In this document: in pieces, positions 4,025 through 61,710 of the stretch
Position numbering within the stretch: position 1 is the first letter of the stretch
Layout: each line of letters begins with the position of its first letter
From: Synechococcaceae cyanobacterium
GTDB lineage: Bacteria; Cyanobacteriota; Cyanobacteriia; PCC-6307; Cyanobiaceae
Length of the DNA: 64,000 bases
Assembly (NCBI GenBank): GCA_046340895.1
Contig: JBKDSQ010000058.1
Span: 25,095 to 89,094, forward strand
Direction of reading: 5' to 3'
Translations under genes and position numbers: made by a program
Notes under the pieces: generated by a model
What the model was told of the DNA's origin: nothing
Seen by the model: only the letters and a program-made list of their open reading frames with translations
The model's database searches: none

Positions 4025-4147
4025 GGACAAAAAATGGAAATAAAAAAGGAAATAGGCACCGGCCGATGACGATCCGGTGCTCTTTCCACGGAGCACCAGA
4101 CCGCGGCCACCGCGCAACCGTGAAACCACGCAATCCGCGCCAACCGC

Positions 4148-4975
4148 TCAGGCTCGCGGGGCGGCCACCTCCGCCAGCAGCCGCCAGGGGCCGTTCTGTT
4201 CCAGCCAGGTGCGATCGGAGTGATCGGTGCAGAGCAGGTAGCCGGCAAAGCCGAGGCCGTTGACGCTGAAGCCGGCGCAGTGCTCCCGCAGCCGCCGCAC
4301 GGTGAGGAACCAGCGGTCGTTGAACAGCAGGTTGTAGGCATGGCGGGGCGCGTCATCCGACGCCCGGCGGCCCAGGCCCAGTTCCTGGCAATGGCGGGCG
4401 TAGAGCTCCGGCAGATCCGACCACCCCTGTGGATCGAGGCGCGGGCTGAGACGGTAAGCCCACGGCCAGGGCTCCGCCCCAGCCAGCTGGGCCTCCAGGG
4501 CCGGCGCCAGGGGGCAGCTGGCCTCCCCGGCCCTGCGCGGCAACAGCTGCAGATGGCGGTGCGGCTGGCTGGCCCCGGCGGTGGCGCTGCTGTTGAAGAA
4601 CCACAGCCCACCGGTGTCGCCGGCCACAGCCGCCACCGCCTGCCAGTCGGCCGCTTCGATCCAGCCGCTCTGGGGCCGCCACTGCTGGCTGATCACCAGC
4701 AGATGGGCGGGCTGCACCGGGTATTTGTTGAGCAGCAGCACATGGCCGCTGGCGAGCCGGCCCACCTCCAGGGGGAGATCCCACGGCAGGAAGGGATTGG
4801 GCTTGGGACCCTCCGGCCGCAGGTGGCGGGGGGTGCGGCTGGTGAGCCGGCGGACCACGAACGGATCGACACCGGGGAGGGATACCAGCTCGGTGCCGAG
4901 GGGCACGAGCGCCCCGGCCTGGCGGGCGGCCTCGGAGACCGCCAGGGCCTGCCGCCAGTACCGCTCAGCCCGCAC
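4148..4975 (-). CDS. ATP adenylyltransferase / Ap4A phosphorylase II-like (HIT-like) protein
   Basis: 275 aa. The LLLNKYPVQPAHLLVIS block and the HRHLQLLPR (HxHxQ-type) motif are typical of the Apa2-like family. Confidence 0.7.
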   Translation of the reverse strand: MRAERYWRQALAVSEAARQAGALVPLGTELVSLPGVDPFVVRRLTSRTPRHLRPEGPKPNPFLPWDLPLEVGRLASGHVLLLNKYPVQPAHLLVISQQWRPQSGWIEAADWQAVAAVAGDTGGLWFFNSSATAGASQPHRHLQLLPRRAGEASCPLAPALEAQLAGAEPWPWAYRLSPRLDPQGWSDLPELYARHCQELGLGRRASDDAPRHAYNLLFNDRWFLTVRRLREHCAGFSVNGLGFAGYLLCTDHSDRTWLEQNGPWRLLAEVAAPRA

Positions 4976-6143
4976 CGGCCTGCAACCGGGCCAGGGAGGC
5001 GCCGCGGTAGTAGCGCCCCAGGATTTCGTTGAAGCGAAGCCCCTGCTGCGCTAGCTCCTGGGCGCCCGTCTGGCTCATGCTTGCCCCCAGGTGGCCATGG
5101 GCCTCGTCGACGATCTGCTGGGTGGCGGCGTAGAGGCTCTCGACGATGCCGCCCTGGTAGCTGAGGATCACCCCGGCCGTGCTGGTGGTGGCCTCGCGGG
5201 TGCGGCCGTTGACGGCGGCCAGGCCGGTGTAGTTCTGCCAGCGGGTGGTGTCGCCCAGGTGCCAGTGCTCATCGGCCGGGCGGGCCATGTGGGCCATGGC
5301 GTAGGAGCGGGCGGCCACGGCCTGGGCTCGGAGGGCCTCGATGTTCCAGTGGGTGGGCATCTCGCCGCCCACCACCGAGCTGATGTAGCGCTCCAGCGGC
5401 AGATGATTGACGACCCGCAGGCCGCCATCACCGCGGAGCAGGCGGAAGCGGCCCTCGTAGGGGCGGCCATCGGCCAGCAGGTGCTGGTCGGGGGCGGTTT
5501 CCAGCCAGAGCTCGGAGGCGCCGCCCAGGGCCGAGGACACCGGCACCGGCGCGCCAGCCCCGCCCTGCTGCAGCACCCGGCCGTCGCGGTCGCGCAGGCG
5601 CCAGGGGCCGCTGGCGCTCAGGGACGGCCAGGCGGAGAGCTTGAGCAGGGCGACCCGGATCTCCAGGTCGAGCGCCGGACCAGCGGCCGGAACCGCCAGG
5701 GCGTCGCCGCTGCGGGCGCCGCTGGCGCGCTGGGCCTGGAGCGAGCCGGTGGAGGAAGTCGTGGCGCCCGATGGCGCAGCAGCAGAGGCGGGGGCAGAAG
5801 CCGGACTGGAAGGAACGCTCCGCGCGGAGGGGGACGCCGGGCTGGGCTCGGCGATCAGCGCCTCCAGCAGGTGGCGGTCTGCGGCCCGCGGGGAGGGGGT
5901 GAGCAGGGCCTGGGCGGCGAAACCCACGCCAACGGCCAGGGCTGCCAGCGCCGCCACCGGCGCGGTGAGCACCACCGGATGGTGCCGGCCGGCGCGGATC
6001 AGCCTGCGCAGCGCAGGCCCTGCCAGGCCTCCGAAGCCGCCGATCCGGCGGCGCAGGGCCTCGGCCTGGCGAGCAAGGTTCCGTGCCACAGCAAACTGCC
6101 CGATCCGATCAGCCGGATTGTGGCGGAAGAAGCGGCCTCGCAC
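4965..6143 (-). CDS. SpoIID/LytB domain protein (exported or membrane-anchored)
   Basis: C-terminal SpoIID-like blocks (AQAVAARSYAMAH, GVILSYQGGIVESLYAA, MSQTGAQELAQQG) and an N-terminal hydrophobic anchor. The longest ORF (GTG 6143) overlaps phzF by 145 nt. An in-frame GTG at 5975 just before the TM segment is an alternative start. Confidence 0.8.
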   Translation of the reverse strand: MRGRFFRHNPADRIGQFAVARNLARQAEALRRRIGGFGGLAGPALRRLIRAGRHHPVVLTAPVAALAALAVGVGFAAQALLTPSPRAADRHLLEALIAEPSPASPSARSVPSSPASAPASAAAPSGATTSSTGSLQAQRASGARSGDALAVPAAGPALDLEIRVALLKLSAWPSLSASGPWRLRDRDGRVLQQGGAGAPVPVSSALGGASELWLETAPDQHLLADGRPYEGRFRLLRGDGGLRVVNHLPLERYISSVVGGEMPTHWNIEALRAQAVAARSYAMAHMARPADEHWHLGDTTRWQNYTGLAAVNGRTREATTSTAGVILSYQGGIVESLYAATQQIVDEAHGHLGASMSQTGAQELAQQGLRFNEILGRYYRGASLARLQAGAG

Positions 6144-6922
6144 ACCATCCCCCCAGGACGGTCAGAGCATTGCCAGCCCACCACGCGCGAGCGGCCGAGG
6201 CGCTCCATCCACCAGGGGGCAACCAGGGCGTGGGCCGATCCGGTGACGGGATCCTCCGGGATGCCGAGCCCGGGGGCGAAGAAGCGCAAGCGGTAGTCGG
6301 CCGCCTCCCCCGCCACCTGCGGGGCCGGGCCAGCCGGTGGCAGGGCCTGCATCGCCACCAATCCGTTGCGCAGCTCCTCCGGCAGCGCGTGCGCCAGAGC
6401 GGCCAGCTCCGCCAGGTCGGCCGTGGCCGGCAGCAGCGCCACGGCGTAGCCGAGCGAGGAACGCCAGAAGGCCTCGGCCCCCACGGCCAGCCGCCGCTGC
6501 AACAGCGCCTCAAGGGCGCCGGGAGAGGGAGCCTGCTGCAGGCCTCCAGCCGGAAGGGTGATGGCCCCCAGGCCCGGTCGCTCCGCGGCCGGCGCCCGCA
6601 ACAGCCGCACCGGCAACGGACCGCTGCGGCTGTGGAGCGCCAGCTCCTGGCCCGGCTCCAGCACCCCCCAGTACCCCAGCGCCAGCAGCGCCGCCAGCGT
6701 GGCGTGGCCGCACAGGGGCACCTCACAGCTGGGGGTGAACCAGCGCAGCAGCCAGCGCTCGCGCTCACGCAACAGGAAGGCGGTTTCCGATTGGCGCAGA
6801 CTGGCCGCCACCGCCTGCAGCCAGGTGTCGTCCACCGGATCCTCCAGCCGCACCACAGCCGCGCCGTTGCCGGCCCCGGGGAGCTCGCTGAAGGCCTCCA
6901 CATGCAGGGCGGCCAGGCTCAT
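5999..6922 (-). CDS. PhzF-family isomerase
   Basis: 307 aa. Contains GNGAAVV, SETAFL, CGHATLAAL and EDPVTGSAH blocks typical of PhzF. Its ATG overlaps the gpsA stop (ATGA). Confidence 0.85.
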   Translation of the reverse strand: MSLAALHVEAFSELPGAGNGAAVVRLEDPVDDTWLQAVAASLRQSETAFLLRERERWLLRWFTPSCEVPLCGHATLAALLALGYWGVLEPGQELALHSRSGPLPVRLLRAPAAERPGLGAITLPAGGLQQAPSPGALEALLQRRLAVGAEAFWRSSLGYAVALLPATADLAELAALAHALPEELRNGLVAMQALPPAGPAPQVAGEAADYRLRFFAPGLGIPEDPVTGSAHALVAPWWMERLGRSRVVGWQCSDRPGGMVCEAASSATIRLIGSGSLLWHGTLLARPRPCAAGSAASEAWQGLRCAG

Positions 6923-7839
6923 GCTTCCGCCTCCGCCCGCAGGTCGCGCTCCATCAGGGCCCGCACCGCCCGGGCCGGATCGATGCGGCCATCGAGCAGG
7001 GCCACCACCTGTTCGCTGATCGGCAACCGCCAGCCATGGCGGGCCGCCAGGGCCAGCACCGCCCGCGCCGTGGGGGCCCCTTCGACGGTGGCGCCCACCG
7101 CCGCCAGGGCCGTGGCCTCATCGGCCCCGCGGGCCAGTTGCACGCCGAAGCGGTGGTTGCGGCTGAGGTCGCTGTTGGCGGTGGCCAGCAGGTCGCCCAG
7201 GCCCGCCAGCCCGTACAGGGTGGTGCTCTGGCCGCCAAGGGCGCGCAGCACCAGACCCATCTCCGCCAGACCGCGGCAGAGCAGCGAGGCCTTGGCGTTC
7301 GCCCCCAGCCCCAGCCCATCGCTGACGCCGGCGGCGAGCGCCATCACGTTCTTCAGCGCCCCGGCGGCCTCGGTGCCGATCGGATCGCTGTTGGTGTAGA
7401 GCCGCAGGTTGGGGGCTGAGAGGGCGGCCTGCAGGTGGCGGGCCAGCCCCTCGTCGCCGCTGGCGACCACGCTGGCGGCGGGGAGGCCGCGTTCCAGCTC
7501 CGCCGCCAGGTTGGGGCCGCTCAGCACCGCCACGCCCACCGCCGGCAGCTGGCGGGCCCAGAGCTGGGCGGCGCTGCAGAGGCTTCCGCCGTCGATCCCC
7601 TTGCTGCAGCTCAACAGGGGCAGATCCGCCGGCCAGCCGGGGCCGAGCCGCTGTGCCAGGCCCTCCACCCCGGCCATCGACACGGCCGAGACGACCAGAT
7701 CCGCCCCATCCAGCAGCGGCTGCGGATCGCCACCGTCGCGGCGCGACCAGAGCCGCAGCTCATGGCCTCTGGCCTGCCAGAGATGCGCCAGGGTGCTGCC
7801 CCAGGCGCCGCGACCGAGCACAACGATGCGCAGAGCCAT
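6919..7839 (-). CDS. gpsA: NAD(P)H-dependent glycerol-3-phosphate dehydrogenase
   Basis: N-terminal Rossmann motif VLGRGAWGSTLA and conserved GALKNVMALAAG and NHRFG blocks. ATG at 7837-7839. Confidence 0.9.
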   Translation of the reverse strand: MALRIVVLGRGAWGSTLAHLWQARGHELRLWSRRDGGDPQPLLDGADLVVSAVSMAGVEGLAQRLGPGWPADLPLLSCSKGIDGGSLCSAAQLWARQLPAVGVAVLSGPNLAAELERGLPAASVVASGDEGLARHLQAALSAPNLRLYTNSDPIGTEAAGALKNVMALAAGVSDGLGLGANAKASLLCRGLAEMGLVLRALGGQSTTLYGLAGLGDLLATANSDLSRNHRFGVQLARGADEATALAAVGATVEGAPTARAVLALAARHGWRLPISEQVVALLDGRIDPARAVRALMERDLRAEAEA

Positions 7840-9799: not shown

Positions 9800-12700
9800 T
9801 CAGGCGCTGAAATAGCGGGCCTGGCTGTGCAGCGCCACAAGGGCGGTGGTGCTCTGCTCCGGTTCGAGCTGGTCGCTTTCGTCCATCGACAGGCCGATGC
9901 GCTCGGCACCGAGCCAGTCGAGCTGGGGGCGCGAATCGGCCACGTTCGGGCAGGCGGGGTAGCCGAAGGAATAGCGGCTGCCGCGGTAGCGCTGGGCGAG
10001 CACGTCGCGCAGGGGCATGGCGGCCGGATCGGCGAAGCCCAGCTCAGCGCGGATGCGGGCATGCACCCATTCCGCCAGCGCCTCGGCCATCTGCACGCCC
10101 AGGCCGTGGAAGTAGAGGTAATCGCTGTACTGGTCGGCGCGGAACAGCTCCTGGGCGAAGGCGGTGGCCTTCTCGCCCATCGTGACCGCCTGCATCGGCA
10201 ACACGTCGGTGGGGCGGGGGCTGCCGCTGGGGTCGCTGCGCAGATCGCGGTAGAAGTCGGCGATGCAGTAACGGTTGCCGGAGCGCTGGCGGGGCAACTG
10301 GAAGCGGCCCAGCTCGACGCCGGCCAAGGCCGGATCCGCGCCGGCCGCCGCTGCCGCCAGGGGGGCGGGATCGAACACCACCACGGCGTTGCCGCTGCGG
10401 CCGCAGGGGAAGTAGCCGTAGGCCACCCGGGGGGTGAGCAGCCGCTCGGCCTGGCAACGCTCCAGCCAGTGCTGCAGCACCGGCTCGGCCTTCTCGGCCA
10501 GCATCGCCTCGTACTCGGGGCGGCTCTGCTGTTGGCTCTTGCGCAGCTGCCACTGGCCGGCGAACAGCGCGTTGCGGTCGAGGTAGGCGATCACCTCCGC
10601 CAGGTCGATCTCGTGCTCCAGCAGCACGCGCGATCCCCAGAAGGGGGGAACGAGCGCGGGCTCCTCGGGAACCGCGGTCGAGCGGCTCTCGTCCGGGGGC
10701 GCCGGGCTGGCGGGGGGAGGGCTGGCTTCGGAGGGCTCTGCTGCCTCGGCTGGCACGGCTGGCTCGGCAGCCTGTGGAGCCTCCGCGACGCCTTCGGCCA
10801 GGCCCAGGCCCGGCGGCGGGCCGTCGAGGAAGCCCTGGCCGTCGTCCCAGCGGCCGGCGGCCTTGGCGTCCATCAACGCATCCATGAAACGCAGGTCGGC
10901 GAAGGCATCGCGGCCGTAGATCACCTGGCCGTCGTACACGGAGCGGCAGTCGCCATGGACGAAGCGGGGCGTGAGCGCCGCGCCGCCGAGGATCACCGGC
11001 ACGCGGATGCCCTGCTGGTTGAAGGTTTCGAGGTTGTCCTTCATGAAGGCGGTGGATTTCACCAGCAGGCCGCTCATGGCGATGCAATCCGCGTTGTGCT
11101 CGCGCTGGGCCTCCACGATCTGCTCGACACTCTGCTTGATGCCGAGATTGATTACCTCATAGCCATTGTTGGTGAGGATGATGTCAACCAGGTTCTTGCC
11201 GATGTCGTGCACATCGCCTTTGACGGTGGCGATCAGGAATTTGCCCTTACTGCTCGACTGACCCTCGATTTTCTCCATGTGGGGTTCGAGATGGGCCACG
11301 GCCGCCTTCATCGTTTCGGCGCTCTGCAGCACGAAGGGCAGCTGCATCTGGCCGGATCCGAACAGCTCGCCCACCACCTTCATGCCATCGAGCAGGAAGG
11401 TGTTGATGATCTGCAGCGGTGGATGGTTCTGGAGAGCTTCATCGAGCGCCGCCTCGAGGCCAATGCGCTCACCATCGATGATGTGCTGGGTGAGGCGCTG
11501 CTCCACCGGCAGATCCGCCAGCGAGGGTCCGCTGGCGCGGGCCTCCTTGGCGGACACCCCCTCGAACATCGTGGTGAGGGAGGTGAGCGGATCGAAAACG
11601 CAGATGTCCCCCTCGAAGCGGCGCTGGTCGTAGATCAGCTGGCGGCAGATCTGCTGGTGCTCGTCGCTGATCTTGGCCAGCGGCAGGATCTTGGCCGGGC
11701 TGACGATCGCCGCATCCATGCCCGCCTGGCAGCACTCGTGCAGGAATACGGAATTGAGAACAATCCGCGCAGCCGGCGAGAGGCCGAAGCTCACGTTGCT
11801 CACCCCGAGCACCACATGAACACCCGGCAGCTGCTGGCGGATCAGGCGGATCGCCTCCACGGTGGCAGCTCCGTTGTTGCGATCTTCCTCGATGCCGGTG
11901 GAGATCGGCAGGGCGAGGGGGTCGTAGAAGATCTCGTGGGCGGGGATGCCGTATTCGAGGATGTCGCGGTAGGCGCGCTGGGCGATCGCGAACTTGCGCT
12001 CGGCCGTGCGGGCCATGCCCTCCTCATCGATCGTGCCCACCACAATGCCGGCCCCGTAGGCCTTGGCCAGCTCCAGCACCTTGAAGAAGCGCTCGTCGCC
12101 GTCTTCGTAGTTGGTGGAGTTGAGGATGCACTTGCCGCCGGCCACCTTGAGGCCAGCCTCCATCTTCTGCCACTCGGTGGAATCGAGCATCAGCGGCAGG
12201 TTCACATTCGTGACCAGCCGGCTGACGAGATTGCGCATGTCACTGACGCCATCGCGGCCCACATAGTCGACGTTGACATCGAGAACATGGGCGTTTTCCT
12301 TCACCTGGCTGCGGGCCACCGCCACCAGGCCATCCCAGTCTTCCTCGTTGAGCAGCTCGCGCACCTTTTTCGAGCCGCTGGCGTTGAGGCGCTCGCCGAT
12401 GATCAGGAAGGAGTTGTCCTGCTGATAGGGGGTGACGCCATAGATCGAGGCGGCCGCGGGTTCGTAGTCGAGGGCGGGGCGGACATCGGCCGCTTCCGGG
12501 CTCCGTTCGCTGGCCTGGGTGCGGGAGCCGCGCACCAGGCGCGGCGCAGGCCGCAGCTCGCGGGCGAGCTCGGTGAGGCTGGCGATGTGGGCGGGGGTGG
12601 TGCCGCAGCAGCCGCCGATCACCTGCACGCCGAGATCCTCGACGAAGTGCATCAGCTGCATCTTCATTTCGGTGGGCGTGAGCCGGTAGTGGGCGACGCC

Positions 12701-20186: not shown

Positions 20187-21731
20187 CTACGGGCCCTCGG
20201 CGAGGCTGGCGGCGGCGCTGGCGCGGATCGCGGCCAGCTCGCTGGCGGGGATCTTCTCCAGCTGCCGCAGCACCAACGCCATGCGCGGGTTGGCGCGCAG
20301 GGAGTCGTGATGGCGGGCGAGGAAATCCCAGTAGAGGCTGGTGAAGGGGCAGGCGTCGGGGCCGCTGCGCTGCTTGGTGCTGTAGCGGCAGCCTTTGCAG
20401 TAGGTGCTCATCCGCTGGATGTAGGCGCCGCTGGCGGCGTAGGGCTTGCTGGCGAGGCGGCCACCGTCGGCGAAGAGACCCATTCCGAGCACGTTGGTCT
20501 GCATCACCCAATCGAAACCGTCGATGAACATGCGCTGGAACCAGGCCGTGAACGCCTGCGGATCGAGGCCGGCGAGCAGGCCGTAGTTGGCGAGCACCAT
20601 CAGGCGCTGGATGTGGTGCGCGTAGCCGCTGGCATGGAGTTCAGCGAGCACGGTGTCGAGGCAGGCCATGCCGCTGGTTCCCAGGCTGTCCAGCCAGTGG
20701 GGCAGCGGCCGGGTGGTGCCGAAATGGTTGAGCGCCGTGTAGTCGGCGCCGAACCAGTGGTAGAGGCCGTGGGTGTATTCGCGCCAGCCCAGGATCTGGC
20801 GGATCACGCCCTCCAGGCTGGCGAGCGGCGTGCCGCGCTCCAGCCCGGCGGCTTCGAGCCGGCGGATCACCTCCAGCGGATGGAGCAGGCCGAGGTTGAG
20901 GTAGGGGCTGAGCAGCGCATGCCAGAGGGTGGGCTGGCCGCTCACCATCGCGTCCTGGTAAGGCCCGAAGCCATCGAGGCGGGTGGCGATGAAGTGCTCC
21001 AGCACCTGCAGCGCCTGGGCGCGCGACACGCCCCAGCCAAAGGGCCGCGCAACCCCGGGCAGTGGCGGCAGGCCGGCGGCAAGGCGTTCCGCTGCGAGCG
21101 CTTCCACGCGCGCGATCACGGCCTCGGTGATGGCATCGGGCTGGAACTGCAGCGGCGGCGGCCCCTGCAGCCCCTTGGGCGGCGCCTTGCGGTTGTCGTG
21201 GTCGTAATTCCACTGGCCGCCCAGCGGCTCCGGCCCATCCATCAGCACCTCGAAGCGGCGCCGCCCCTCGCGGTAGAAGAACTCCATCCGCAGCTGCTTG
21301 TAGCGGCCGGCCCAGGCGGCGAAGTCTTGTCGGCTCCAGAGGAAGGCGTTGGAGGGATGCCACAGCAGCCGCAGCGGCCGGTGGGCGGCGATGGCGGCGA
21401 CGGCGCGTTCGATGGCGGCGCGGAAGGGCCGATCGGCCGGCTCCATCAGGTGGAGTTCCTCGATGCCGTGTTCGGCGCACCAGGCGTCGAGGGCGGTGGA
21501 GAAGCTCTCCGCCTCCAGGGCATCCACCTGCCAGCCGTTCAGGCGCAGCTCGGCGGCGAAGTGGCGCATGGCGCTCCACACCAGCACCAGTTTCTGTTGG
21601 TGGAAGGCATGGCGGGCCAGAACTGACGTGCTCTCGATCAGCAGCACCCGCGCCGCGCCGGGCTGGTGGGCCGCCAGGGCGCTCTGGCCGGCATGGAGCT
21701 GATCCCCCAACACCCAGACGCCGATGCTCAT
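20187..21731 (-). CDS. Cryptochrome/photolyase-family protein, FeS-BCP / (6-4) photolyase-like
   Basis: ATG at 21729-21731 (MSIGVWVLGDQL, the COG3046-type N-terminus). The C-terminus has four Cys (CKGC...C...C, in YCKGCRYSTKQRSGPDACPF), as expected for the 4Fe-4S cluster of this subfamily. Confidence 0.85.
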   Translation of the reverse strand: MSIGVWVLGDQLHAGQSALAAHQPGAARVLLIESTSVLARHAFHQQKLVLVWSAMRHFAAELRLNGWQVDALEAESFSTALDAWCAEHGIEELHLMEPADRPFRAAIERAVAAIAAHRPLRLLWHPSNAFLWSRQDFAAWAGRYKQLRMEFFYREGRRRFEVLMDGPEPLGGQWNYDHDNRKAPPKGLQGPPPLQFQPDAITEAVIARVEALAAERLAAGLPPLPGVARPFGWGVSRAQALQVLEHFIATRLDGFGPYQDAMVSGQPTLWHALLSPYLNLGLLHPLEVIRRLEAAGLERGTPLASLEGVIRQILGWREYTHGLYHWFGADYTALNHFGTTRPLPHWLDSLGTSGMACLDTVLAELHASGYAHHIQRLMVLANYGLLAGLDPQAFTAWFQRMFIDGFDWVMQTNVLGMGLFADGGRLASKPYAASGAYIQRMSTYCKGCRYSTKQRSGPDACPFTSLYWDFLARHHDSLRANPRMALVLRQLEKIPASELAAIRASAAASLAEGP

Positions 21732-22102
21732 GCCGGCGGACCCTCGATCTGGCTGAGCCGGCAGGCGCGCCGCGCCACGGCGGCGCCATAGCCGCGCTCC
21801 ACAGAGCCGAACTCGGGGCTGATGCGTCCGTCGCGGCAGTCGACGGTGATGCGTTCGTGGTGGCCGCGCTGGTCGCTGAGGCGCAGCCGCAACTGATAGG
21901 GGCGGGCGGGGTTGCGGTGGAAGTCGTCGCCGCACACCGGACCCACGCAGAGACCGGGTGCGGCGCGGGCAGGGCTCGGGCCAGCGAAGGCGAACAGCAG
22001 CAGGAGCGCCAGGGCCGCCAGAGCCTCCCCGCCGCCTGCCAGAGCAGGCCAGCGGGGCCTTTCCGGTGGCCGCGAACCGAAGCGGAGGCGAAGGCAAGGC
22101 AA
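21728..22102 (-). CDS. Small exported Cys-containing hypothetical protein
   Basis: High GC3. Signal-like ALAALALLLLFAFAGPSPARA. Its stop overlaps the photolyase ATG (ATGA), which suggests translational coupling. The start is unclear: TTG at 22102 is my guess, and the ORF is open to 22225. Confidence 0.5.
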   Translation of the reverse strand: MPCLRLRFGSRPPERPRWPALAGGGEALAALALLLLFAFAGPSPARAAPGLCVGPVCGDDFHRNPARPYQLRLRLSDQRGHHERITVDCRDGRISPEFGSVERGYGAAVARRACRLSQIEGPPA

Positions 22103-22158
22103 GGGTGCAGCCCCGGGCAGGATCGCTGCATCCTGATGCCTCGTGGCGGGTGAGGGGC

Positions 22159-22470
22159 TCAGCTCTCCCCCTCGCCGACGGGTTCCGTGGATGCCGTACC
22201 CAGGAAGGCCCGGTTCTGGGCCCAATAGATGTGGATCGGCTTTTCATTGCGCAGGAGATCCAGCACGCTCTGGAACATGGTGCTCGGGAGGTGCATCAGG
22301 ATCATGCCGCCGTTGTTGGCATCTGCCTCGAAGGCCATGCCGGGGTCGTTGAAGCGCACGTAGGCGATCGGTGTGCCCGTGGTGCCGTAGAGGGTGATCT
22401 GGGAACGGTTCGTCTGGTAGCCGCTTGGGCCGCCGTAAACGAGCACGTGGTAGTTGGTGACTTCGGCCAT
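22159..22470 (-). CDS. Hypothetical 103-aa protein
   Basis: ATG at 22470 preceded by AGGAG about 7 nt upstream (minus-strand sequence ...gcaggagaatcccATG). Coherent codon usage. No family recognised. Lies at the left border of the AT-rich island. Confidence 0.6.
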   Translation of the reverse strand: MAEVTNYHVLVYGGPSGYQTNRSQITLYGTTGTPIAYVRFNDPGMAFEADANNGGMILMHLPSTMFQSVLDLLRNEKPIHIYWAQNRAFLGTASTEPVGEGES

Positions 22471-22797
22471 GGGATTCTCCTGCCTCGAATGGCATGTGGC
22501 ACTGAATTCAGGCTAGAGCTGATAGGCGCGAATCAACGATGAACTTTGGTGACGGATACCACGACTTGCGATGTGAACATGAATGACAACAGCAAAGTCG
22601 GCAAGAAATCAGATGCAATGATCGGTAGGCTGGATCTCAATCTTTGGCCACGCGCAAGTTCGGCATTTCCCCGGGACAATCACAGCCTGAAAACGGAAAC
22701 ACATAGAAACCTCCATGTGGACGGATGCGAGCTGGTGGCAGGCGAGCAGGCCTCGCTGGCACTCCTCGTGAGGCATCCATCAAATCAGGCAGAGAGC

Positions 22798-23541
22798 TCA
22801 GCCCCCCACCACCAGGGCATCGGCAATCTCATAGCGCTCACCATTCTCCCCAAGACGGATCACAGAGAGATCACCCCGCCGCTGCACCAAAAGCTTCTCC
22901 GGTTGATCGGAAGCCACCGCTTTGCCATTCACGAACAGAAACTGCCGCTTCTGGCCCTCGGGATTGGTGACCACCACAGTGCCGCTTTTGTTGGCCCTGC
23001 GAATCACGCTGGCTTTGCACCAGGCGGCCTTACCACTGCTCCCAGACGCACAGGCCACTTCCCCTGAGGCGTGATAGGGAGTGCCGGGAACCAGAGCATC
23101 CTGGGAAGCCGGCACAGGAACGAGGGAGGTGCCGCTGATCCCCACACGAAGGCTGTAGCGGCTCGATTCCTTGCGGCGCGCCGCTGCACGCATCAGATAC
23201 ACCCGCACCGTTACATCGCCATCACTGGGCAGGAGGCCACGGAAGCTATTGTCTGAGCTGCTGCCGATGAACAGGGCGCTCTCCGCACCCGCCGCCATCA
23301 CGTTGAAATAGTTCTGGGGGTTGGAACCCTTCAGTTCCACCGTCAGGGTTTGACCAGCGCCTGCTCGCAGTTTGTAGTCGACGGTCTGGTAGCCCTTGAG
23401 CTGGCCTTGGAGCAGGGTGGAATCGGTGCCGACTCGAAAGTTGACCCTTTGGCTCTGGATTGCAGGCTGGGCAACGCCAATCGCAGCCGGGAGGGTGGTT
23501 GCCAGGAGGCAAGCGGCAACGGTGGCGAGCAATGCACGCAT
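22798..23541 (-). CDS. Exported hypothetical protein (island ORF D)
   Basis: ATG at 23539-23541 gives MRALLATVAACLLATTLPAAIGVAQP, a signal peptide. Beta-rich mature part with paired Cys (VACASGSSGKAAWC). Intermediate G+C. Confidence 0.65.
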   Translation of the reverse strand: MRALLATVAACLLATTLPAAIGVAQPAIQSQRVNFRVGTDSTLLQGQLKGYQTVDYKLRAGAGQTLTVELKGSNPQNYFNVMAAGAESALFIGSSSDNSFRGLLPSDGDVTVRVYLMRAAARRKESSRYSLRVGISGTSLVPVPASQDALVPGTPYHASGEVACASGSSGKAAWCKASVIRRANKSGTVVVTNPEGQKRQFLFVNGKAVASDQPEKLLVQRRGDLSVIRLGENGERYEIADALVVGG

Positions 23542-23687
23542 CGGACGCTTAGGAGTGGGGCTTTCGGAGACTAGCCCGCTTGCTCTCTGAAATACTAGCC
23601 GCCGCATATCAACTGACGCGAATGGTTAGTCACCATGCCTGGATACATTGAGGAGGATACATATTAAACCACCAAATGACAGATATT

Positions 23688-24092
23688 CTAACGGATAAGT
23701 TCAGCGGTTGACGCGGGCGTATGCGTCAATCCGCAGCAACGCCGGGCTGGAACAGGCGTGCGGCCAATGGAATAAAACACTGGTGTGCAAGCATGGAAGG
23801 AATAATCACCTTTCGGCCGCAATAATGCAATTATCGCAACGATGACTAGATAGTCAGGCTTAAGACGAAGGAAGAAGGTGGGTTCACCGCACTTTGATTT
23901 TCCAAAGCCCACGCAGAACTCGAATACCCATTGAAGATGACTTTCGAGTGGCGGGGAGGAAATCTGACTTATCGCTGCCATAGCATACAGTCCGGCGAAT
24001 ACGAGAAAGACATTTATCCCGATATACCAAGCCTCTCCGATTTCTTCACGATATAGCGGTTTTCGTGTGCGAATCCATTCATAGCCTTTCAT
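23688..24092 (-). CDS. Small membrane protein (island ORF C)
   Basis: 134-aa ATG ORF in the AT-rich region. Hydrophobic segments WYIGINVFLVFAGLYAMAAISQI and YLVIVAIIALL. No family recognised. Confidence 0.5.
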   Translation of the reverse strand: MKGYEWIRTRKPLYREEIGEAWYIGINVFLVFAGLYAMAAISQISSPPLESHLQWVFEFCVGFGKSKCGEPTFFLRLKPDYLVIVAIIALLRPKGDYSFHACTPVFYSIGRTPVPARRCCGLTHTPASTAELIR

Positions 24093-24267
24093 GCGTCAGA
24101 AAGCTACCCACGCTATCATTGCGGACGGAACAAATAAGAGAAGTATGCTCATAAGACTTGCGGGGTGCGTCTAACGCCCTTGATCTAGCGCGTAAGTATG
24201 TTGGCATGGCTTTTGCGCCCTTTGGAAAAGGAATGACGACATACTTTCTTCGCTCAGGATCGGTTTA

Positions 24268-25563
24268 CTAGGCATGATCATCACCTACACCTAAACCTCT
24301 AAGAATCTCCCAGACAGGAAGAAATGCTCGCAGCGTGCCATATGAGTACATTGGCAAATCATCATGGTAATAAAGACCCTCCTTCATCTCGAACATGTGG
24401 CTGACATATCTTGAGTAAATGTCTCTTAGAAGTCCTGTTTGAAATATATCTAGATTGTGAGTGAACACGGAGCTGATCATCGATGTCTTAACTCCATACC
24501 AATCAGGGAGCGAGATCTCGCAGCGTACACTCTTCCCGTGACGGTTGAGAAAGCACTTATCAAACTCGTCCTTTACCGCTCTTATTGCGAAATCATGAAA
24601 GCCTGACTCCATAGATTCTAGCCAGAGATCTTTCTCATGCTCGTCTAACTGGTCGTAGATAGCTTGTATTTCAGTAACCCTACCCTCCCTAGTCTCGCCA
24701 AATATCTCTCCCTCATGGCAGGACCCTCGAAAAGAAGCAAAAGGATTGACGAAAACCGCATATATAGCATTTGGGTATGGGAAGATCTGGCCAATTTCAC
24801 CCCATTGTTGCGTCGCATAGACAAGAGAGTGGAAACCTTGTGCCTCCAAACGATGAGAAATCGCGCTCGAGATTGTGTTTAGGGCACTCTTGGAGTATTC
24901 GGGAATTTGTCCCCCGTTCTCTACATCTATGTCGATCCATCCCTTTACTTCTTCGAACTCTATTGCGACGACATACATTGAACGATCGTCAAGGAGGTTA
25001 TTCTCAAACCATTGATAGTACGACGCATCAGGATAGTAGATTTCTAGATTTATCTTGCTGTTCTCTTCCCTTGGGACAAGAGCGAGTGATGATTTTCCAT
25101 TTCCGAGCACTTCCTGCACATAAGCATCTCTAACTGTTCTGCTCTCCATTGGTGCAACAAGGACAGTATTGATAGCTTTTTCAGTAAGCCCCGGGAAGAT
25201 TGAGCAGAAGTGATTCGAATAAGCAAGCAACTCCGTGAAAGCCTGCCGCTCAGTTTGTTTCGACTTCTTTAACTCAATGATCGTGAGTCCAATGCATTCT
25301 GAGTTCCCGAATAAGTCTATTCGTGTTGTTGAGTCTCCAGTTCTTTCTAGCCTAAGCTCTCGTGCGGACAGAACCAGAGATTCAAGTCCAGCAACAATCG
25401 AGTTAATTCTTGTTTCCACAATTTGCTGCAATAGTATGCTTATCGGAGGGAATTCTTCCTTTGCCCATGAAATTGGCTCTCGTCGTCCACGAATGAGCCT
25501 GTGAAACGACTCTTTGTAATTCTCAAAGAGATGGTCTCTTAACTGGTTCTCGGTGTGTAACAT
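24268..25563 (-). CDS. PD-(D/E)xK nuclease-like protein, NucS/DUF1016-like N-terminal core plus unknown 300-aa region (island ORF B)
   Basis: 431-aa ATG ORF in the lowest-G+C part of the window. Residues about 5-120 read ENQLRDHLFEN...TRIDLFGNSECIGLTIIELKKSKQTERQAFTELLAYSNH, i.e. D83...E97-x-K99...Q107...Y115. This is the layout I know from NucS-C/YhcG-type endonucleases. The assignment is by eye only. Confidence 0.7.
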   Translation of the reverse strand: MLHTENQLRDHLFENYKESFHRLIRGRREPISWAKEEFPPISILLQQIVETRINSIVAGLESLVLSARELRLERTGDSTTRIDLFGNSECIGLTIIELKKSKQTERQAFTELLAYSNHFCSIFPGLTEKAINTVLVAPMESRTVRDAYVQEVLGNGKSSLALVPREENSKINLEIYYPDASYYQWFENNLLDDRSMYVVAIEFEEVKGWIDIDVENGGQIPEYSKSALNTISSAISHRLEAQGFHSLVYATQQWGEIGQIFPYPNAIYAVFVNPFASFRGSCHEGEIFGETREGRVTEIQAIYDQLDEHEKDLWLESMESGFHDFAIRAVKDEFDKCFLNRHGKSVRCEISLPDWYGVKTSMISSVFTHNLDIFQTGLLRDIYSRYVSHMFEMKEGLYYHDDLPMYSYGTLRAFLPVWEILRGLGVGDDHA

Positions 25564-25698
25564 GAAAGATCACTTTATTTTTTGAGTTTACGCCTATTGC
25601 CTAACGCCGAAGTTAATCTGCAAAGCCGGGTGCGCTGGACCGGAACTGCCGAGGAGGGATGGCCGGCTTTGTCATTTTCAACGTCACGTTAGACAACT

Positions 25699-26856
25699 CT
25701 ACTGAGATACCCGGACTGCTTCATCATACAGACCGTACGCCCGAAGTAGCCGCAGGGAGTCGCGACCGTCGATTAAGCAGTAGCGGCGCGACCTGCCCGG
25801 ATGCACCGCGAATGCGCGCAAGGTCGCACGCACAGGCGGGGTGATCTCGTGTGAATGCTGAACAAAGAGAACGTCGGCTGGCTCTTGTGCCAATCGGTAT
25901 ATCTGGTCGTTGTTCTTGCCGAGGTGATTCAGACCCATTGGAGCGAACCTCGCGGGACCCTTCAACAAGAATGCCCCGGAGACTCGGCGCCCGCCGAGAT
26001 GTAGATGAGCAGTGAAGTGGTCCGACTGTTCTCCGCCCCAGTCCTTGGTTACCGGGTCTCCAAGAATCCGCGCAAGGCTCACCTTGAACGCATTCTCCGA
26101 AACAAGCTTCATGGGTTCAACGGAATCCGGCACCGGTTCGTCATTGACCTTGTCGAACTCACAAAAGTCTTCGATGAAGTGCTCAAAAAAGTCTTGTGTC
26201 CACCAAATGATCTCGTCAGCCCAAGCGGGGTCCTCCGACCGTAACCACGGTGCCCCGATGATCAAGGGCCTGAAGTAGAGACTGTTCCCTTCCTTGCGGT
26301 TGAATACGGCGATGATGGACTGCAGGGCACCAGTAGTAAGCTCCGTGCGCGTGGTGTCAGCATGGATGTGCTTCGTTGAATACTCAAGTAGGACTCGGTA
26401 CTCCGTCGTCCCGGCTGGCTTGATCTCGCTCGAGGTCCGTTCCGACTCGTAAACAGCCCCGTTCGGAAGCAACTGCTCGGTCGAGCAGAACATCCTCCCG
26501 GCCCCAGCGCTGAGCAACTGTGCGAGCGTGGGAATCCTATTGACGTTGCAGAACGCCAGCATGACGTCCGTGTAGATGTGATCGAGACGGATAGATGCTT
26601 GCCACTCGGGATGGGGTGGCAGCCGAGTGGTCATTTCGTCGACGACCTTGATGCCGGCTGGCCCGAGCACGCTCTGGACTGCCCGGCGGTTCACGAAGCC
26701 GGGGTCGATTGTGTGTTCAAGCGGGAGCGCCCGCTTGGATGGTGATAGTTGCTGCCGGATGGGTGAGCCGTCTGTCATCGACCGTGTGGGTTGTCTAACG
26801 ATTATGGATAAATCGCGCTCAGTCGAGATCTTATCCGAAGTTGAACAAGCCGTCAA
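25699..26856 (-). CDS. Restriction-endonuclease-like protein with unknown N-terminal domain (island ORF A)
   Basis: 385-aa ORF from TTG 26856, or 359 aa from ATG 26778. The C-terminal block KDWGGEQSDHFTAHLHLGGRRVSGAFLLKGP...LFVQHSHE has an E/D...xK arrangement (E276, D279, K299, with later acidic E337) that resembles a type II/IV REase catalytic core. No P-loop or methylase motif. Confidence 0.65.
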   Translation of the reverse strand: MTACSTSDKISTERDLSIIVRQPTRSMTDGSPIRQQLSPSKRALPLEHTIDPGFVNRRAVQSVLGPAGIKVVDEMTTRLPPHPEWQASIRLDHIYTDVMLAFCNVNRIPTLAQLLSAGAGRMFCSTEQLLPNGAVYESERTSSEIKPAGTTEYRVLLEYSTKHIHADTTRTELTTGALQSIIAVFNRKEGNSLYFRPLIIGAPWLRSEDPAWADEIIWWTQDFFEHFIEDFCEFDKVNDEPVPDSVEPMKLVSENAFKVSLARILGDPVTKDWGGEQSDHFTAHLHLGGRRVSGAFLLKGPARFAPMGLNHLGKNNDQIYRLAQEPADVLFVQHSHEITPPVRATLRAFAVHPGRSRRYCLIDGRDSLRLLRAYGLYDEAVRVSQ

Positions 26857-27201
26857 CCAAGAAGCCCCGGTCTACTGCAGAAAGATCAGGCCCTTCCTCA
26901 GGCTTTCTTTGGATTTCCGAATAGGCACAAGAGCCTAGGGCTGGCGGTTGGTGCGTTCCCTGCTGTCTTTGCGAGCAATGTAACGGCACAGCGGCTGACG
27001 ACCAGTCTATTCCCATGGCAAGCTGTCCGCGATTGTCTTGAGCGGCTACAGGCTAAGGTCTATTTCCCTTCTTGGGGTAGACGGATCAGCCCGGAGCTGG
27101 ACTGCTCTCCCGCACCCGCACCGCCACGATCTCCATCACCCCGCCACAGAGCGGACAGTAGATCGGAGGCCTGGGTTGCTGTAGTCGGGGCTCCGGCAGC
27201 A

Positions 27202-29274
27202 TCACATGGCAGCTGCCACCCCCTCCCCCGCCTCAACCACCACCGCCATCCCACCCCTGCTCTCCTCACCCTCTTCCCCCTCCACCACCCCATCCCCCTC
27301 CGGATGGAAATACTCCCAAACCTGCCGCGCCAGCGCCGGCCCCATCCCGGGCGCCTGGGCGAGGGTTTCAGGGCTGGCCAGCTGAATCGCATCGATCGAG
27401 CGGAAGTGGGCCAGCAGGTCGCGCACGCGCTTGGGGCCCAGGCCGGGGATGTCGCTGAGGCGGGAGCGCTTCATGCGCTCGCCCCGCTGCTGGCGGTGGA
27501 AGCTCACCGCGAAGCGGTGCGCCTCATCGCGCAAGCGGCGCAGCAGCGCCACGCCCAGTTGGTCGGGGTCGCTTTCCAGCGGTTGCTTGGCGCCGGGCAC
27601 GAACACCTCCTCGCGTTGCTTGGCCAGCGAGCACACCACCAGATCGCCGGCCAGGTTCAGCTCGCGCAGGGCCTCCATCACCGCCGACAGCTGGCCCTTG
27701 CCGCCGTCGATCATCACCACATCCGGCCAGTCGCCCATGCCGTCGGTGGCCAGGGCCGTGGCGCTGCGTTTGCGCAGCTCCCCCAGATCCGCTCCCTCCG
27801 CCTTCGCCTGCGCCCAGCGCCGGAACCGCCGCCGGATCACCTCCGCCATCGCCATAAAGTCATCAGAATGGCCGGCGCGGATGCTGCTGCTGCGGATCTT
27901 GTACTTGCGGTAGTGCTGCTTCGCCGGCAACCCATCCACAAACACCACCTGCGACGCCACCGCATCGCTGCCCTGGATGTGGCTGATGTCATACCCCTCG
28001 ATTCGCCGCGGCGGCTCATTCAGCTCCAGCAGCTGGGCCAGGTCTTCAATCGCCAGCTGGTTTTGCTCGCTCGCCCGCTGGGCCCGCTGCAGCTCATAGC
28101 CGGCGTTGCGCTCCACCAGCTCGATCAGTTCCGCCTTCTGCTGCCGCTGCGGCACCGCCAGCTTCACCTTGCGGCCCCGCAATTCCGCCAGCCACGCCTC
28201 GATCAGCCCCTGCTGCGGCAGCGCCTCCTGCAACAACAGCTCCGGCGGGATCTCCACCGCCTCCACCTGGCCGTAGTGCTCCTCGATCACCCGCTGCAAA
28301 ATCAGCCCCGGCGGCAGCGGCTCCTGATCCGGCCCCAGCGCATCCGCCGTGAACCCCAGCCGGCCCACCAACTTTCCAGCCCGCATCTGGAACAGCTGCA
28401 CCGCCGCCACCCGGCCATCACTGGCCAGCCCCAGCACATCGCGGCTCACCGAGCTGTCGCCCAGGCTCATCTTCTGATCCGCCGTGAGCGTGTCGAGCCC
28501 CTGGATCTGGTCGCGCACCCGTGCCGCCGCCTCGAAATCCAGCCGCTCCGCCAGCCGCGCCATCTGCTCCTGCAGCAGCCGCATCAACTCCTCATTCCTT
28601 CCCTGGAACACCATCGCCACCTTGCGCAGCGTGCGGTGGTAATCCTCCGAGCTGATCTTCTGCTGGCACACGCCCGGGCAGCGGCCGATGTCGTAATTCA
28701 GGCAGGGGCGGTCGCGGTGCAGCGGTTGCGGGCGCTGGCGCAGCGGAAACACCCGCTTCACCAGCGACAACGTGCGCCGCAGCAGGCCCACATCCACATA
28801 CGGCCCATAAAACCGATCCAGCGGGCTGCGCAGCCGCCGCCGCCGCGTGATGAAGATCCTTGGATAGGCCTCGCTCCAGGTGATGCACAGATACGGGTAT
28901 TTCTTGTCGTCTTTCAGCAGCACGTTGAAATGCGGCTGGTGCGCTTTGATCAGATTTGATTCCAGCGCCAGCGCTTCGGCTTCGCTATCGGTAACAATAA
29001 ACTCGATCTCGCATACCTGGCGCACCATCAGGCGGATGCGCGGGCTATGGCCGTGGCCCGAGCCGCTCTGGAAATAGCTGCGCACCCGGTTGCGCAGCAC
29101 CTTCGCTTTACCGATATAGAGAATGCGGTCGTCGCCGTCGCGAAACAGGTAACAGCCCGGCTCCACCGGCAGGTTCTGCAGCCGCTCCTTCAGCCGCAGC
29201 GGCCGCTGCAGCAGCGGCCCCGCCCCAGGCTCACGCGACGCCGCGATCCCCTCGGTCACCGTCGCCTCGCTCAC
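27202..29274 (-). CDS. uvrC: Excinuclease ABC subunit C
   Basis: 690 aa. GIY-YIG N-terminus ([24 protein letters not shown]), UVR domain, endonuclease V-like region and a C-terminal HhH. GTG start overlaps the stop of the next gene (GTGA). Confidence 0.95.
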
Positions 29275-56771: not shown

Positions 56772-57596
56772 ATGACCGCCTCCCCCCTCGCCGCTCCCGC
56801 CGCCACCCCCCGCGGTCACGACATCTGCATGTCCCTCCAGGACGTGACGATCTCCTACGGCAGTTTCGTGGCTGTGCGCGGCGTGTACATGGACATCCCG
56901 CGCGGGCGGGTAACGGCCTTCATCGGCCCCTCGGGATGCGGCAAGAGCACCGTGCTGCGGGCCCTCAACCGCATGAACGATCTGATTCCCGGCTGCAGCC
57001 TCAAGGGCCGGGTGCTGTTCGATGGCCAGGATCTCTACCAACCCCGCGTCGACCCGGTGGAGGTGCGGCGACGGATCGGCATGGTGTTCCAAAAACCGAA
57101 TCCCTTCCCGAAAACCATCTACGAAAACATCGCCTTCGGGGCCCGCATCAACGGTTTCCGTGGCGATATGGACGAACTGGTGGAACGCTCATTGCGCAAG
57201 GCAGCCGTCTGGGAGGAGTGCAAGGACAAACTGCAGGAAAGCGGCCTGGCTCTCTCCGGCGGCCAGCAGCAACGGCTGTGCATCGCCCGCGCCATCGCCA
57301 CCGAGCCGGAGGTGATTCTGATGGATGAACCCTGCTCCGCTCTCGACCCGATCTCCACCCTCAAAATCGAGGAGACGATGCATGAACTCAAACGCAGTTA
57401 CACGATCATCATCGTCACCCACAACATGCAGCAGGCCGTCCGCGTGGCCGACATGACAGCCTTTTTCAATGCCGAAGCGGTCGACGGCGGCACCGGCAAG
57501 CTCGGCTATCTGGTGGAGTACAGCGAAACCGAGAAAATCTTCAATGCCCCTGGCCAGCAGGCCACTCTGGATTATGTGAGCGGCCGCTTCGGCTAA
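56772..57596 (+). CDS. pstB: Phosphate ABC transporter ATP-binding protein PstB
   Basis: Walker [10 protein letters not shown], signature LSGGQQQRL, Walker B ILMDEP, and the PstB-typical C-terminus YVSGRFG. Confidence 0.96.
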
Positions 57597-57918
57597 TCGG
57601 CTTCGCCGCAAGGCTGTTGCTGGCGGATCCAACATCGCGGCCTTGAAGAAAGGGTGCCGAGGTTCCAAAGAGCCAACTTGAGAGGGCAGGCAGAAACCGT
57701 ATCGCCGGATCCGACGCGATCCGCACGGAGGTGGCATTGGTGCAGAGCAGCGGTGGATGCATGCCCCACTCCGGGTTCACAGCCACGCTGCGAACAGTAA
57801 TCGCCGAACCTCCGCACGTCTGGTGACTTTCTGTCGGCAATCGGCAGGCCCGAACCCCAGCAGGCTGCAAATACGCCCCACCGAAACCACGCAGCGGCTT
57901 CTGCGCGGTCTACAGCAG

Positions 57919-57942
57919 AAAAAAACCGGCCCGAAGACCGGT
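57919..57942 (-). terminator. Rho-independent terminator downstream of tRNA-Ser
   Basis: Minus strand reads ACCGGTC-TTCG-GGCCGGT, a 7-bp stem (one G-U pair) with a tetraloop, followed directly by TTTTTTT. It starts 7 nt after the tRNA 3' end. Confidence 0.65.
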
Positions 57943-57949
57943 GAAAGAA

Positions 57950-58036
57950 CGGAGAGGGAGGGATTCGAACCCTCGATAGAGTTGCCCCTATACAGCATTT
58001 CCAGTGCTGCGCCTTCGACCACTCGGCCACCTCTCC
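57950..58036 (-). tRNA. tRNA-Ser (anticodon GGA)
   Basis: Minus strand: GGAGAGG-TG-GCCGAGTGGTCGAAGGC-G-CAGCA-CTGGAAA-TGCTG-long variable arm-GAGGG-TTCGAAT-CCCTC-CCTCTCC-G. This is a class II cloverleaf with a GGA anticodon. CCA is not encoded. Confidence 0.93.
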
Positions 58037-58089
58037 ATGGGCAGAATGGGGCCTGAGGCAATGTAGCAGGCAGCCATGCCCCGGCATCC

Positions 58090-61591: not shown

Positions 61592-61710
61592 GCCGGTGCA
61601 AGGGGGGCTTGGACCCCAGCCGGGTCGGGGTTCGGGGACCACGCCAGAGCCAACGCCGGGAACGCCGCCTACAGCTCGCTAAACTCGTGTTCGAGCACGT
61701 CAATTTCGCC

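Follow-up and report, generated by a model that had tools for sequence, protein, structure and literature searches.

A compositionally foreign, integrase-less islet with two nuclease-like genes at an insertion hotspot downstream of uvrC in a freshwater picocyanobacterium

A 64,000-nucleotide stretch of a metagenome-assembled Synechococcaceae cyanobacterium (GenBank assembly GCA_046340895.1, contig JBKDSQ010000058.1, forward-strand positions 25,095 to 89,094; hereafter the window, in whose numbering coordinates are given) carries a foreign block of about 5.1 kb (~22103–27201). The block lies between uvrC and a small conserved gene followed by a gene for a deoxyribodipyrimidine photolyase-related protein (DPRP), and holds five open reading frames, orfD, orfC, orfX, orfB and orfA in the order of transcription. 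The genome is of the freshwater Cyanobium/Synechococcus type, with about 71% G+C, and the locus tags here are ACK55X_11625–11645. We conclude with high confidence that the block is a horizontally acquired islet occupying an insertion hotspot. Islands of this kind are already known; the new element is that orfC and orfD, the two nuclease-like genes of the cargo, come from large unannotated families.

Measured in 500-bp windows, G+C over the rest of the window was 0.709 ± 0.039 and its lowest value 0.584. Within the feature the mean was 0.559 and the minimum, at 25.1 kb, was 0.434, about 7 standard deviations (sd) under the background, and an unbroken run under −2 sd extended from 22101 to 27300. 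Tetranucleotide composition behaved in the same way, the L1 distance to background peaking at 0.91 in the feature, whereas the background itself averaged 0.218 and did not exceed 0.347. The strong compositional deviation claimed in the original prediction, which had been read from the bare sequence, was thus borne out by both statistics. Its estimate of 45–50% G+C fits 23.6–25.7 kb only, whereas the shoulders at 22.2–23.6 and 25.7–27.1 kb lie at 0.54–0.62. In nucleotide comparisons, homology to relatives broke off at ~27300 on one side and restarted at 21965–22016, inside the small flank gene, on the other. The inserted block therefore spans ~22103–27201, and a start at 22471, as first proposed, leaves out orfA (22159–22470). 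Every ORF in it lies on the minus strand, as do uvrC and the photolyase-related gene, in keeping with the common orientation noted at the outset.

The islet was then set against 80 uvrC loci from relatives, each with 10-kb flanks. Homologues of orfA, orfB, orfX, orfC and orfD were detected by tblastn in none of the 80, so that the genes are accessory, as predicted, and not a syntenic part of the core. In the closest relative (L013), 217 bp stand where the window holds ~5.3 kb, and the gap between uvrC and DPRP measures 310–430 bp in 13 of the 21 relatives that retain DPRP. A rough gene-family map of the DNA downstream of uvrC gave the ancestral order as uvrC, a ~100-aa gene, DPRP, a CopD-like gene, a PHP gene, a ~190-aa gene and CobN, kept from marine Synechococcus to Cyanobium. 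The crude ORF caller behind this map yields antisense shadow ORFs in high-G+C DNA (families F4, F9 and F11), and only recurrent sense-strand families were read. Across different genomes, at least ten unrelated sets of ORFs have been inserted immediately behind uvrC or behind the small gene (L014, L016, L021/L043, L019, L027/L035, L036, L051/L063, L065 and others). They include a SHOCT protein with a phytase-like esterase (L016), a GT2 glycosyltransferase (L036) and a pyridine-nucleotide-disulphide oxidoreductase (Pyr_redox; L051 and L063). In a Cyanobium MAG whose uvrC is 87% identical (L014), the cargo is a 3.25-kb insert at 4034–7284 of low G+C (0.58 against 0.67), with several unknown ORFs and a Methyltransf_23 SAM methyltransferase. 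Because at least ten different cargo sets occupy this one position in other picocyanobacteria, the uvrC-3′ site is a recurrent insertion hotspot. Two origins had been offered for the block, and the swap by homologous recombination at a hypervariable locus is the better supported of them, given the conserved flank order and the unrelated inserts at the same place.

Searches with Pfam, NCBIfam, PADLOC and PHROGs found no integrase or transposase domain in the island ORFs, consistent with the earlier observation that mobility genes are missing. There is no tRNA near the island (the nearest lie at 57.2 and 57.9 kb), comparison of the borders for repeats or attachment (att) sites gave short chance matches only, none of them at the borders, and Rfam, permissive threshold included, matched no structured RNA or tmRNA within it. 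Of the classical marks of a genomic island, atypical composition and patchy presence were thus found, and an integrase and insertion at a tRNA or direct repeat were not. This bears on the view that the block is the decayed remnant of an integrative element, such as a prophage satellite or genomic island that has lost its integrase and attachment sites. Some homologues would suit it, since those of orfC adjoin an integrase and a Toprim primase-like gene in two loci (L099 and L100) and the terminase gpA end of a prophage in another (L101), and integrases make up 2 of 131 neighbours of orfD homologues. We consider such a remnant unlikely, however: the island and its surroundings contain no integrase fragment, tRNA, direct repeat or phage gene, its composition falls into several layers and not one element, similarity among orfC loci stops at the ORF ends with no common element backbone, and other genomes hold unrelated, equally integrase-less cargo at the same site.

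The closest known counterpart is the core defence hotspot (cDHS) of Pseudomonas aeruginosa, which is flanked by core genes, low in G+C and not attributable to a single mobile element, and for which spread by recombination in the flanks has been proposed (Johnson et al. 2023, PMC10250203); more broadly, integrase-less flexible genomic islets set between core genes are of the same kind. The islet resembles cDHS in its conserved core flanks, its genome-to-genome change of content, its lowered G+C and its lack of mobile-element hallmarks. It differs in size, 5 kb as compared with a cDHS median of 26 kb (PMC10250203), in having cargo in which PADLOC recognised no defence system, and in that other picocyanobacteria frequently have metabolic or envelope genes (GT2, phytase-like, oxidoreductase) in this slot. 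Since the cargo is so often of this kind, the uvrC-3′ site is better described as a general flexible hotspot than as a dedicated defence hotspot.

The genes of the block are not compositionally alike. G+C at third codon positions (GC3) is 0.856 in orfA, 0.685 in orfB, 0.467 in orfX, 0.454 in orfC and 0.703 in orfD, and it is 0.87 and 0.91 in the flanking uvrC and DPRP. The suggestion of an old, ameliorating island accordingly survives in part only, the composition being a mosaic of layers that runs from a GC3 of 0.86 (orfA) to 0.45 (orfC). Database representation also differs between the genes. At 90% identity, the clusters of orfA and orfB hold nine variants each, and such variants occur on the same contigs (15,671, 5,297 and 3,251 bp), along with variants of the small flank gene. 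Of orfC and orfD, the database has the identical sequence only, the next-best homologues being 76–78% identical. From these patterns we infer an older, species-level layer of orfA and orfB, to which orfD, orfC and possibly orfX were later added in particular strains.

The arrangement is not peculiar to one assembly. The identical orfC protein was found on four further contigs from other samples (L192–L195), in the same gene order. An independent NCBI assembly of 10,967 bp (L192) gives the order orfD–orfC–orfB–orfA–small gene–DPRP...CobN, and short contigs from three more samples give orfD–orfC–orfX. An assembly or binning chimera, which the metagenomic source and the breaks of several assemblies at 23.6–23.8 and 26.7–27.0 kb might suggest, is on these grounds highly improbable; moreover, the GC3 of orfA resembles that of the host, and orfB is a gene typical of picocyanobacteria. 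It was observed separately that the three short contigs stop at ~23.6–23.8 and ~26.7–27.0 kb, the edges of the younger orfD–orfC–orfX block, and that each of L192–L195 ends at one or both of these edges. Such breaks suggest either coexisting strains with and without the block or an effect of low coverage or low G+C.

Turning to the cargo, orfC (24268..25563, minus strand; 431 aa) is the most foreign part of the island, with a G+C of 0.444. At E≤1e-3 it has at least 344 homologues, of which the best 120 are 55–77% identical over the full length and carry no precomputed Pfam domain. Their hosts include cyanobacteria, Pseudomonas, Halopseudomonas, Methylococcaceae, Sulfuricurvum and Guyparkeria. 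Residues E50, D83 and E97-L-K99 are invariant in 38 sequences. In an AlphaFold2 model (pLDDT 81.9) this motif falls on a helix and on the strands 79–88 and 92–98, as expected of a PD-(D/E)xK core; beyond this N-terminal domain, ~260 aa form alpha/beta and helical domains that have no assignment. Foldseek placed the mismatch endonuclease EndoMS/NucS (5gke, 2vld; prob 1.0) at the top of its PDB matches, a weak but coherent result, and AdnA, SfsA, DrdV, SduA, Card1, Can2 and N.BspD6I among the further ones. When 38 family members were scanned singly with Pfam, 31 matched HSDR_N and 15 matched NucS_C, in each case under the gathering score, and the orfC profile gave chance matches only against PDB sequences. 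By motif and predicted fold, the N-terminal domain belongs to the PD-(D/E)xK nuclease superfamily, and nuclease activity is predicted.

Assignment to a described family did not succeed. NucS/EndoMS and HSDR_N were the best structural and profile matches found, and orfC shares with them the D...ExK motif and the core fold. NucS, however, has an N-terminal DNA-binding and a C-terminal nuclease domain, whereas the nuclease domain of orfC is N-terminal and precedes the ~260 aa just described. With 12.9 bits for NCBIfam PRK04247 against a cut-off of 216 bits, orfC was rejected as a member of NucS/EndoMS. As for HSDR_N, scores stay below the family thresholds, and orfC lacks a helicase or methyltransferase partner, in contrast to type I R subunits. 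Shedu (SduA, DUF4263) was likewise discarded, there being no PADLOC or Pfam match and a weak Foldseek hit (8ps5, E 0.079) as the sole link.

In every locus examined, orfC was solitary. In Halopseudomonas, Limnothrix and another Cyanobium MAG, its neighbours on the chromosome are unrelated genes, and on an 11.4-kb TrfA plasmid it is accompanied by the toxin–antitoxin pairs RelB/YafQ and TacA/TacT and by IS630; other homologues adjoin a SMEK protein or belong to an inovirus. On a Rhizobium plasmid, a relative with 26% identity is surrounded by Shedu, by an ATPase and a UvrD helicase, and by SLATT together with a nucleotidyltransferase. The small ORFs downstream of orfC in L001, L093, L191 and L010 were considered as a conserved partner gene and dismissed, being unrelated to one another and to the window. 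When the window was aligned with other orfC loci, nucleotide similarity stopped within a few bases of the start and stop codons. Homologues in five loci (L001, L002, L010, L093 and L095) have a G+C of 0.35–0.39 and a GC3 of 0.27–0.37 in hosts of 0.49–0.68. The copy in the window is the richest in G+C of those seen, possibly through partial amelioration. A transferred unit consisting of a single ORF, low in G+C in every host and needing no integrase, could also be a selfish, homing-type nuclease gene (orfC, or else orfD) that copies itself by cutting new sites. This is very unlikely, as the insertion sites share neither sequence nor a neighbouring gene, unlike site-specific homing, the genes are large and multi-domain, and there is no intron or intein context.

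The second candidate, orfD (25699..26778, minus strand; 359 aa), lies in a frame that remains open up to a TTG at 26856. We retrieved 929 homologues at 52–78% identity and 1137 representative clusters at 50% identity, and orfD itself matched nothing in Pfam, NCBIfam, PADLOC or PHROG. Its AlphaFold2 model (pLDDT 90.8, pTM 0.88) comprises an N-terminal helical part, a beta-barrel at ~96–180 and a C-terminal alpha/beta domain. Invariant positions are E228, D246-WGGE250-x-SD253, F270-LLK273-G and Q307-H-x-H310. Foldseek searches of the PDB recovered OB folds only (the LysRS anticodon-binding domain, RPA, CST, HIN), with no nuclease in the top 50. In BFVD they recovered three entries named 'Restriction endonuclease', Rpb5 and ssDNA-binding proteins, all at E>1e-3, the viral 'Restriction endonuclease' and Rpb5 matches ranging from 4e-3 to 0.18. 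The orfD profile matched PDB sequences by chance only. The order of secondary-structure elements, together with E228, D253 and K273, fits the alpha-beta-beta-beta-alpha-beta core of the restriction-endonuclease-like fold, and the C-terminal domain is putatively a divergent member of it. Some relatives differ in architecture. Four of 518–543 aa (P0174, P0188, P0229 and P0240) have an extra conserved N-terminal domain of ~150–160 aa without a Pfam match, and three others (P0370, P0379 and P0338) retain only the C-terminal domain, fused to unrelated N-terminal regions, on which Pfam was likewise uninformative.

Homologues of orfD were found inside islands running from NACHT, type I restriction–modification (RM) and GmrSD genes to M78/HTH and DUF4411 genes, between DUF6650 and a type ISP enzyme with SLFN_AlbA_2, and on actinobacterial plasmids. 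In 31 metagenomic loci the neighbours were housekeeping genes as well as a type IIG RM enzyme, DrmA, a type I methyltransferase and M78/HTH proteins. On contigs of 36.9–174 kb with a G+C of 0.30 (L004/L113), the homologue sits in a dense defence island of NACHT, HsdM/HsdS, GmrSD with HNH, unknown proteins of 219 and 179 aa, M78/HTH and DUF4411. In L121, too, an ORF of 380 aa lies downstream of the orfD homologue on the same strand, at a distance of 1.6 kb and not 1.3 kb, and may correspond to the M78/HTH protein. The G+C of orfD homologues tracks that of the host (0.31 in a host of 0.29, 0.60 in hosts of 0.62–0.69).

Taken together, orfC and orfD are independent, solitary and widely transferred cargo. 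A single two-gene sensor/effector system acquired as a unit might be read from their adjacency, with the same orientation and 135 nt between them, and from their joint presence on the short contigs from three samples. In other organisms the two genes nevertheless occur together in none of 15 orfC loci and 91 orfD loci, their neighbour sets differ without a conserved partner, and in the window GC3 is 0.70 for orfD as opposed to 0.45 for orfC; we regard this possibility as very remote. Profile–profile comparison indicated no relationship between orfD and orfC (probability 0.6%).

The position of the block between two repair-related genes of the same orientation, and the affinity of the orfC nuclease domain to NucS/EndoMS, raise another possibility, namely that orfC and orfD are host DNA-repair nucleases acting with UvrC and DPRP and that the block extends a repair operon in this lineage. 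Both genes are missing at this locus from all 80 relatives, both are compositionally foreign, and their homologues elsewhere adjoin unrelated, plasmid or defence genes, not repair genes; the PRK04247 score and the domain order of orfC also speak against it. There is accordingly very little to recommend such an operon. The repair-gene nature of both flanks is incidental, the cargo having no conserved link to uvrC or DPRP in other genomes.

A search of 50,697 phage genome records returned no match for orfC and one for orfD. Viral contigs contributed six orfC and two orfD loci, mostly at contig ends, and because of this placement and the near-absence from phage genomes we ruled out that either is a phage core gene. 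A plasmid collection contained distant homologues only, at 26–36% identity. The patchy distribution across phyla, the locations in defence islands, on plasmids and at prophage ends, and the near-absence from phage genomes would point to restriction of foreign DNA: orfC and orfD would most plausibly each act as a single-gene DNA nuclease against incoming phage or plasmid DNA, in the manner of type IV restriction or of abortive-infection nucleases. We judge the case for such a defence role to be evenly balanced. A classical type II enzyme is argued against by the lack of a methyltransferase partner of orfC or orfD, and Pfam found no methyltransferase domain in the island ORFs. With the type IV enzymes Mrr and MspJI and with Shedu SduA, the two share an organisation as single genes in which a PD-(D/E)xK-type nuclease (a putative one in orfD) is fused to other domains, the lack of a cognate methyltransferase, a patchy occurrence across phyla and a presence in defence islands and on plasmids or prophages. 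They differ in that no PADLOC, Pfam or NCBIfam model of those families matches them and that neither showed a recognizable domain for reading modified bases. Such a role could fall to the beta-barrel of orfD, yet this matches generic OB folds only.

Somewhat less securely, orfC and orfD may be the founders of two widespread, undescribed families of single-gene anti-phage or anti-plasmid nucleases, at a site that exchanges protective genes. On this tentative reading orfC would combine a NucS-like PD-(D/E)xK domain with a novel C-terminal module, and orfD an OB-like barrel with a divergent restriction-endonuclease-like domain. It is conceivable in the same measure that the integrase-less hotspot 3′ of uvrC allows picocyanobacteria, which have few known defence systems, to swap genes by flank recombination. 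Both families are unannotated in Pfam, NCBIfam and PADLOC, both gave confident models, and the catalytic motif of orfC is complete. New restriction or defence nucleases of the stand-alone type may reasonably be sought among them.

The best characterized part of the older layer is orfB (22798..23541, minus strand; 247 aa; frame open up to 23607). Residues 31–135 align to residues 7–113 of the 114 in the g-type lysozyme inhibitor PliG (PDB 4dzg_A, E=1.3e-17), with further PliG matches to 4dy5, 4dxz and 4dy3 and a match to PHROG 2177 (3e-15). An N-terminal hydrophobic signal peptide (MRALLATVAACLLATTLPAAIG) precedes the PliG-like part, and an unassigned C-terminal domain of ~110 aa follows it. 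By its sequence, orfB is a secreted or periplasmic PliG-like protein of the g-type lysozyme inhibitor family, which probably shields peptidoglycan from GH23 (g-type) lysozymes. As in PliG, virtually the whole inhibitor chain is represented; what sets orfB apart is the additional domain and a free-living phototrophic host, the hosts of PliG being animal-associated proteobacteria. We found 995 homologues at 74–93% identity in Prochlorococcaceae, Vulcanococcus and Synechococcus, and those that were checked lie at other genomic sites, one near SNase, HsdM, SIR2 and DUF87 genes and one near an amidase gene. Thus, orfB is a clade-level flexible gene common in picocyanobacteria. The first of these neighbourhoods (L187, 6001–12765, from a picocyanobacterial MAG) is a flexible region rich in defence-type genes, where the orfB homologue is followed by the SNase gene, a 33%-identical PliG-like paralogue, HsdM, a SIR2-like gene and DUF87. 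With a PliG-like inhibitor so common among free-living picocyanobacteria, one may ask whether its target is the lysozyme of a grazer, a phage or a competitor.

These observations can be accommodated by the following scheme. Foreign genes would enter one genome at the uvrC-3′ intergenic site by illegitimate recombination, and would then spread among related strains, or be replaced, through homologous recombination in the two conserved flanks, uvrC to the right and the small gene with DPRP to the left. Recombination in the flanks would leave no integrase, att site or repeat behind. The islet would have been assembled in at least two steps, orfA and orfB first, and then orfD, orfC and possibly orfX. 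Its cargo would be protective, consisting of a periplasmic lysozyme inhibitor and two stand-alone nucleases. We consider this scheme as a whole, a two-step, integrase-less islet spread by flank recombination and carrying protective cargo, to be probable, with less assurance than we attach to horizontal acquisition in a hotspot.

Several points weigh against it. The recombination route is itself inferred. Strains that carry orfA and orfB and lack orfC and orfD are deduced from database statistics. The uvrC–orfD junction is known from the window sequence alone, the four other contigs stopping short of uvrC. As to the protective cargo, PADLOC, Pfam and NCBIfam gave sub-threshold matches only; those of PADLOC were to PDC-S11 at E~0.02 for orfC, with nothing for the other ORFs. 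The assignment of orfD as a nuclease depends on Foldseek matches at E>1e-3 and on a reading of the motif, in which a Leu takes the place of the canonical acidic residue two positions before K273. Finally, the neighbours of orfD homologues are often housekeeping genes, and their proximity to defence genes is a qualitative observation. The islet is small and illustrates cleanly how accessory genes are gained without an integrase by a streamlined picocyanobacterium of high G+C, in a fixed slot between conserved genes, and it bears on the turnover of flexible genes in abundant freshwater phototrophs.

The remaining two reading frames are less informative. The first, orfA (22159..22470, minus strand; 103 aa), lies inside the inserted block, has a host-like codon composition and gave no family or structure match. 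The second, orfX (23688..24092, minus strand; 134 aa; G+C 0.489), is a doubtful gene with hydrophobic stretches. It is called in JGI, Logan and ENA assemblies and not by NCBI, forms a singleton cluster, and yielded no family match and no tblastn match in any locus fetched. Alternatively, 23542–24267 would be a non-coding spacer of 726 nt.

With annotated starts, the spacers measure 423 nt (uvrC–orfD), 135 nt (orfD–orfC), 175 nt (orfC–orfX), 146 nt (orfX–orfB), 327 nt (orfB–orfA) and 56 nt (orfA–small flank gene). The first of these (26779..27201, minus strand; G+C 0.574) contains the right island border, its G+C declining from ~27.08 kb. It also holds a promoter-like TTGACG-17-TAAGAT at 26856–26828, which is a consensus match only; scans for promoters and terminators found no more sites than in shuffled sequence.

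On the right flank, uvrC (27202..29274, minus strand; 690 aa) has the Pfam domains GIY-YIG, UVR, UvrC_RNaseH and HHH and is 74–89% identical across picocyanobacterial relatives (89% in a Synechococcaceae MAG from Lake Loclat, 80–87% in Cyanobium and Vulcanococcus MAGs). Its last ~33 codons (27202–27300) encode a variable Gly/Glu-rich tail that is not conserved in relatives and abuts the island. On the left, the small conserved gene (21728..22102, minus strand; 124 aa; ACK55X_11625) lies directly upstream of DPRP. It has no family match, falls in a cluster of 17 members, is ~97–100 aa long in most relatives and begins with a hydrophobic segment; its family in our map (F3, ~100 aa) was found behind uvrC in 23 relatives, which range from marine Synechococcus to Cyanobium. 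DPRP (20187..21731, minus strand; 514 aa) matches PF04244 (7e-68) and is 69–76% identical in 19 close relatives and 56–64% in two partial matches at contig ends, where it also comes after uvrC. A 686-aa ORF at 20187–22247 (minus strand) was set aside as an artefact of the scarcity of stop codons in DNA of 72% G+C, because DPRP starts at ~21731 and the part upstream overlaps the small conserved gene in another frame. Among picocyanobacteria, DPRP and the small gene upstream of it are variably present (L039, L048, L066, L068 and others); some lineages have no DPRP at all, and several genomes have the CopD-like and PHP genes and CobN directly after uvrC.

Elsewhere in the window, milder dips in G+C (0.58–0.63, just past −2 sd) were seen at 10801–11700, 28501–29200, 56901–58200 and 60901–62500. 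The dips at 10.8–11.7 and 28.5–29.2 kb fall inside long ORFs, the latter within uvrC, and the dip at 56.9–58.2 kb holds two tRNA-Ser genes (57211–57302 and 57949–58037).

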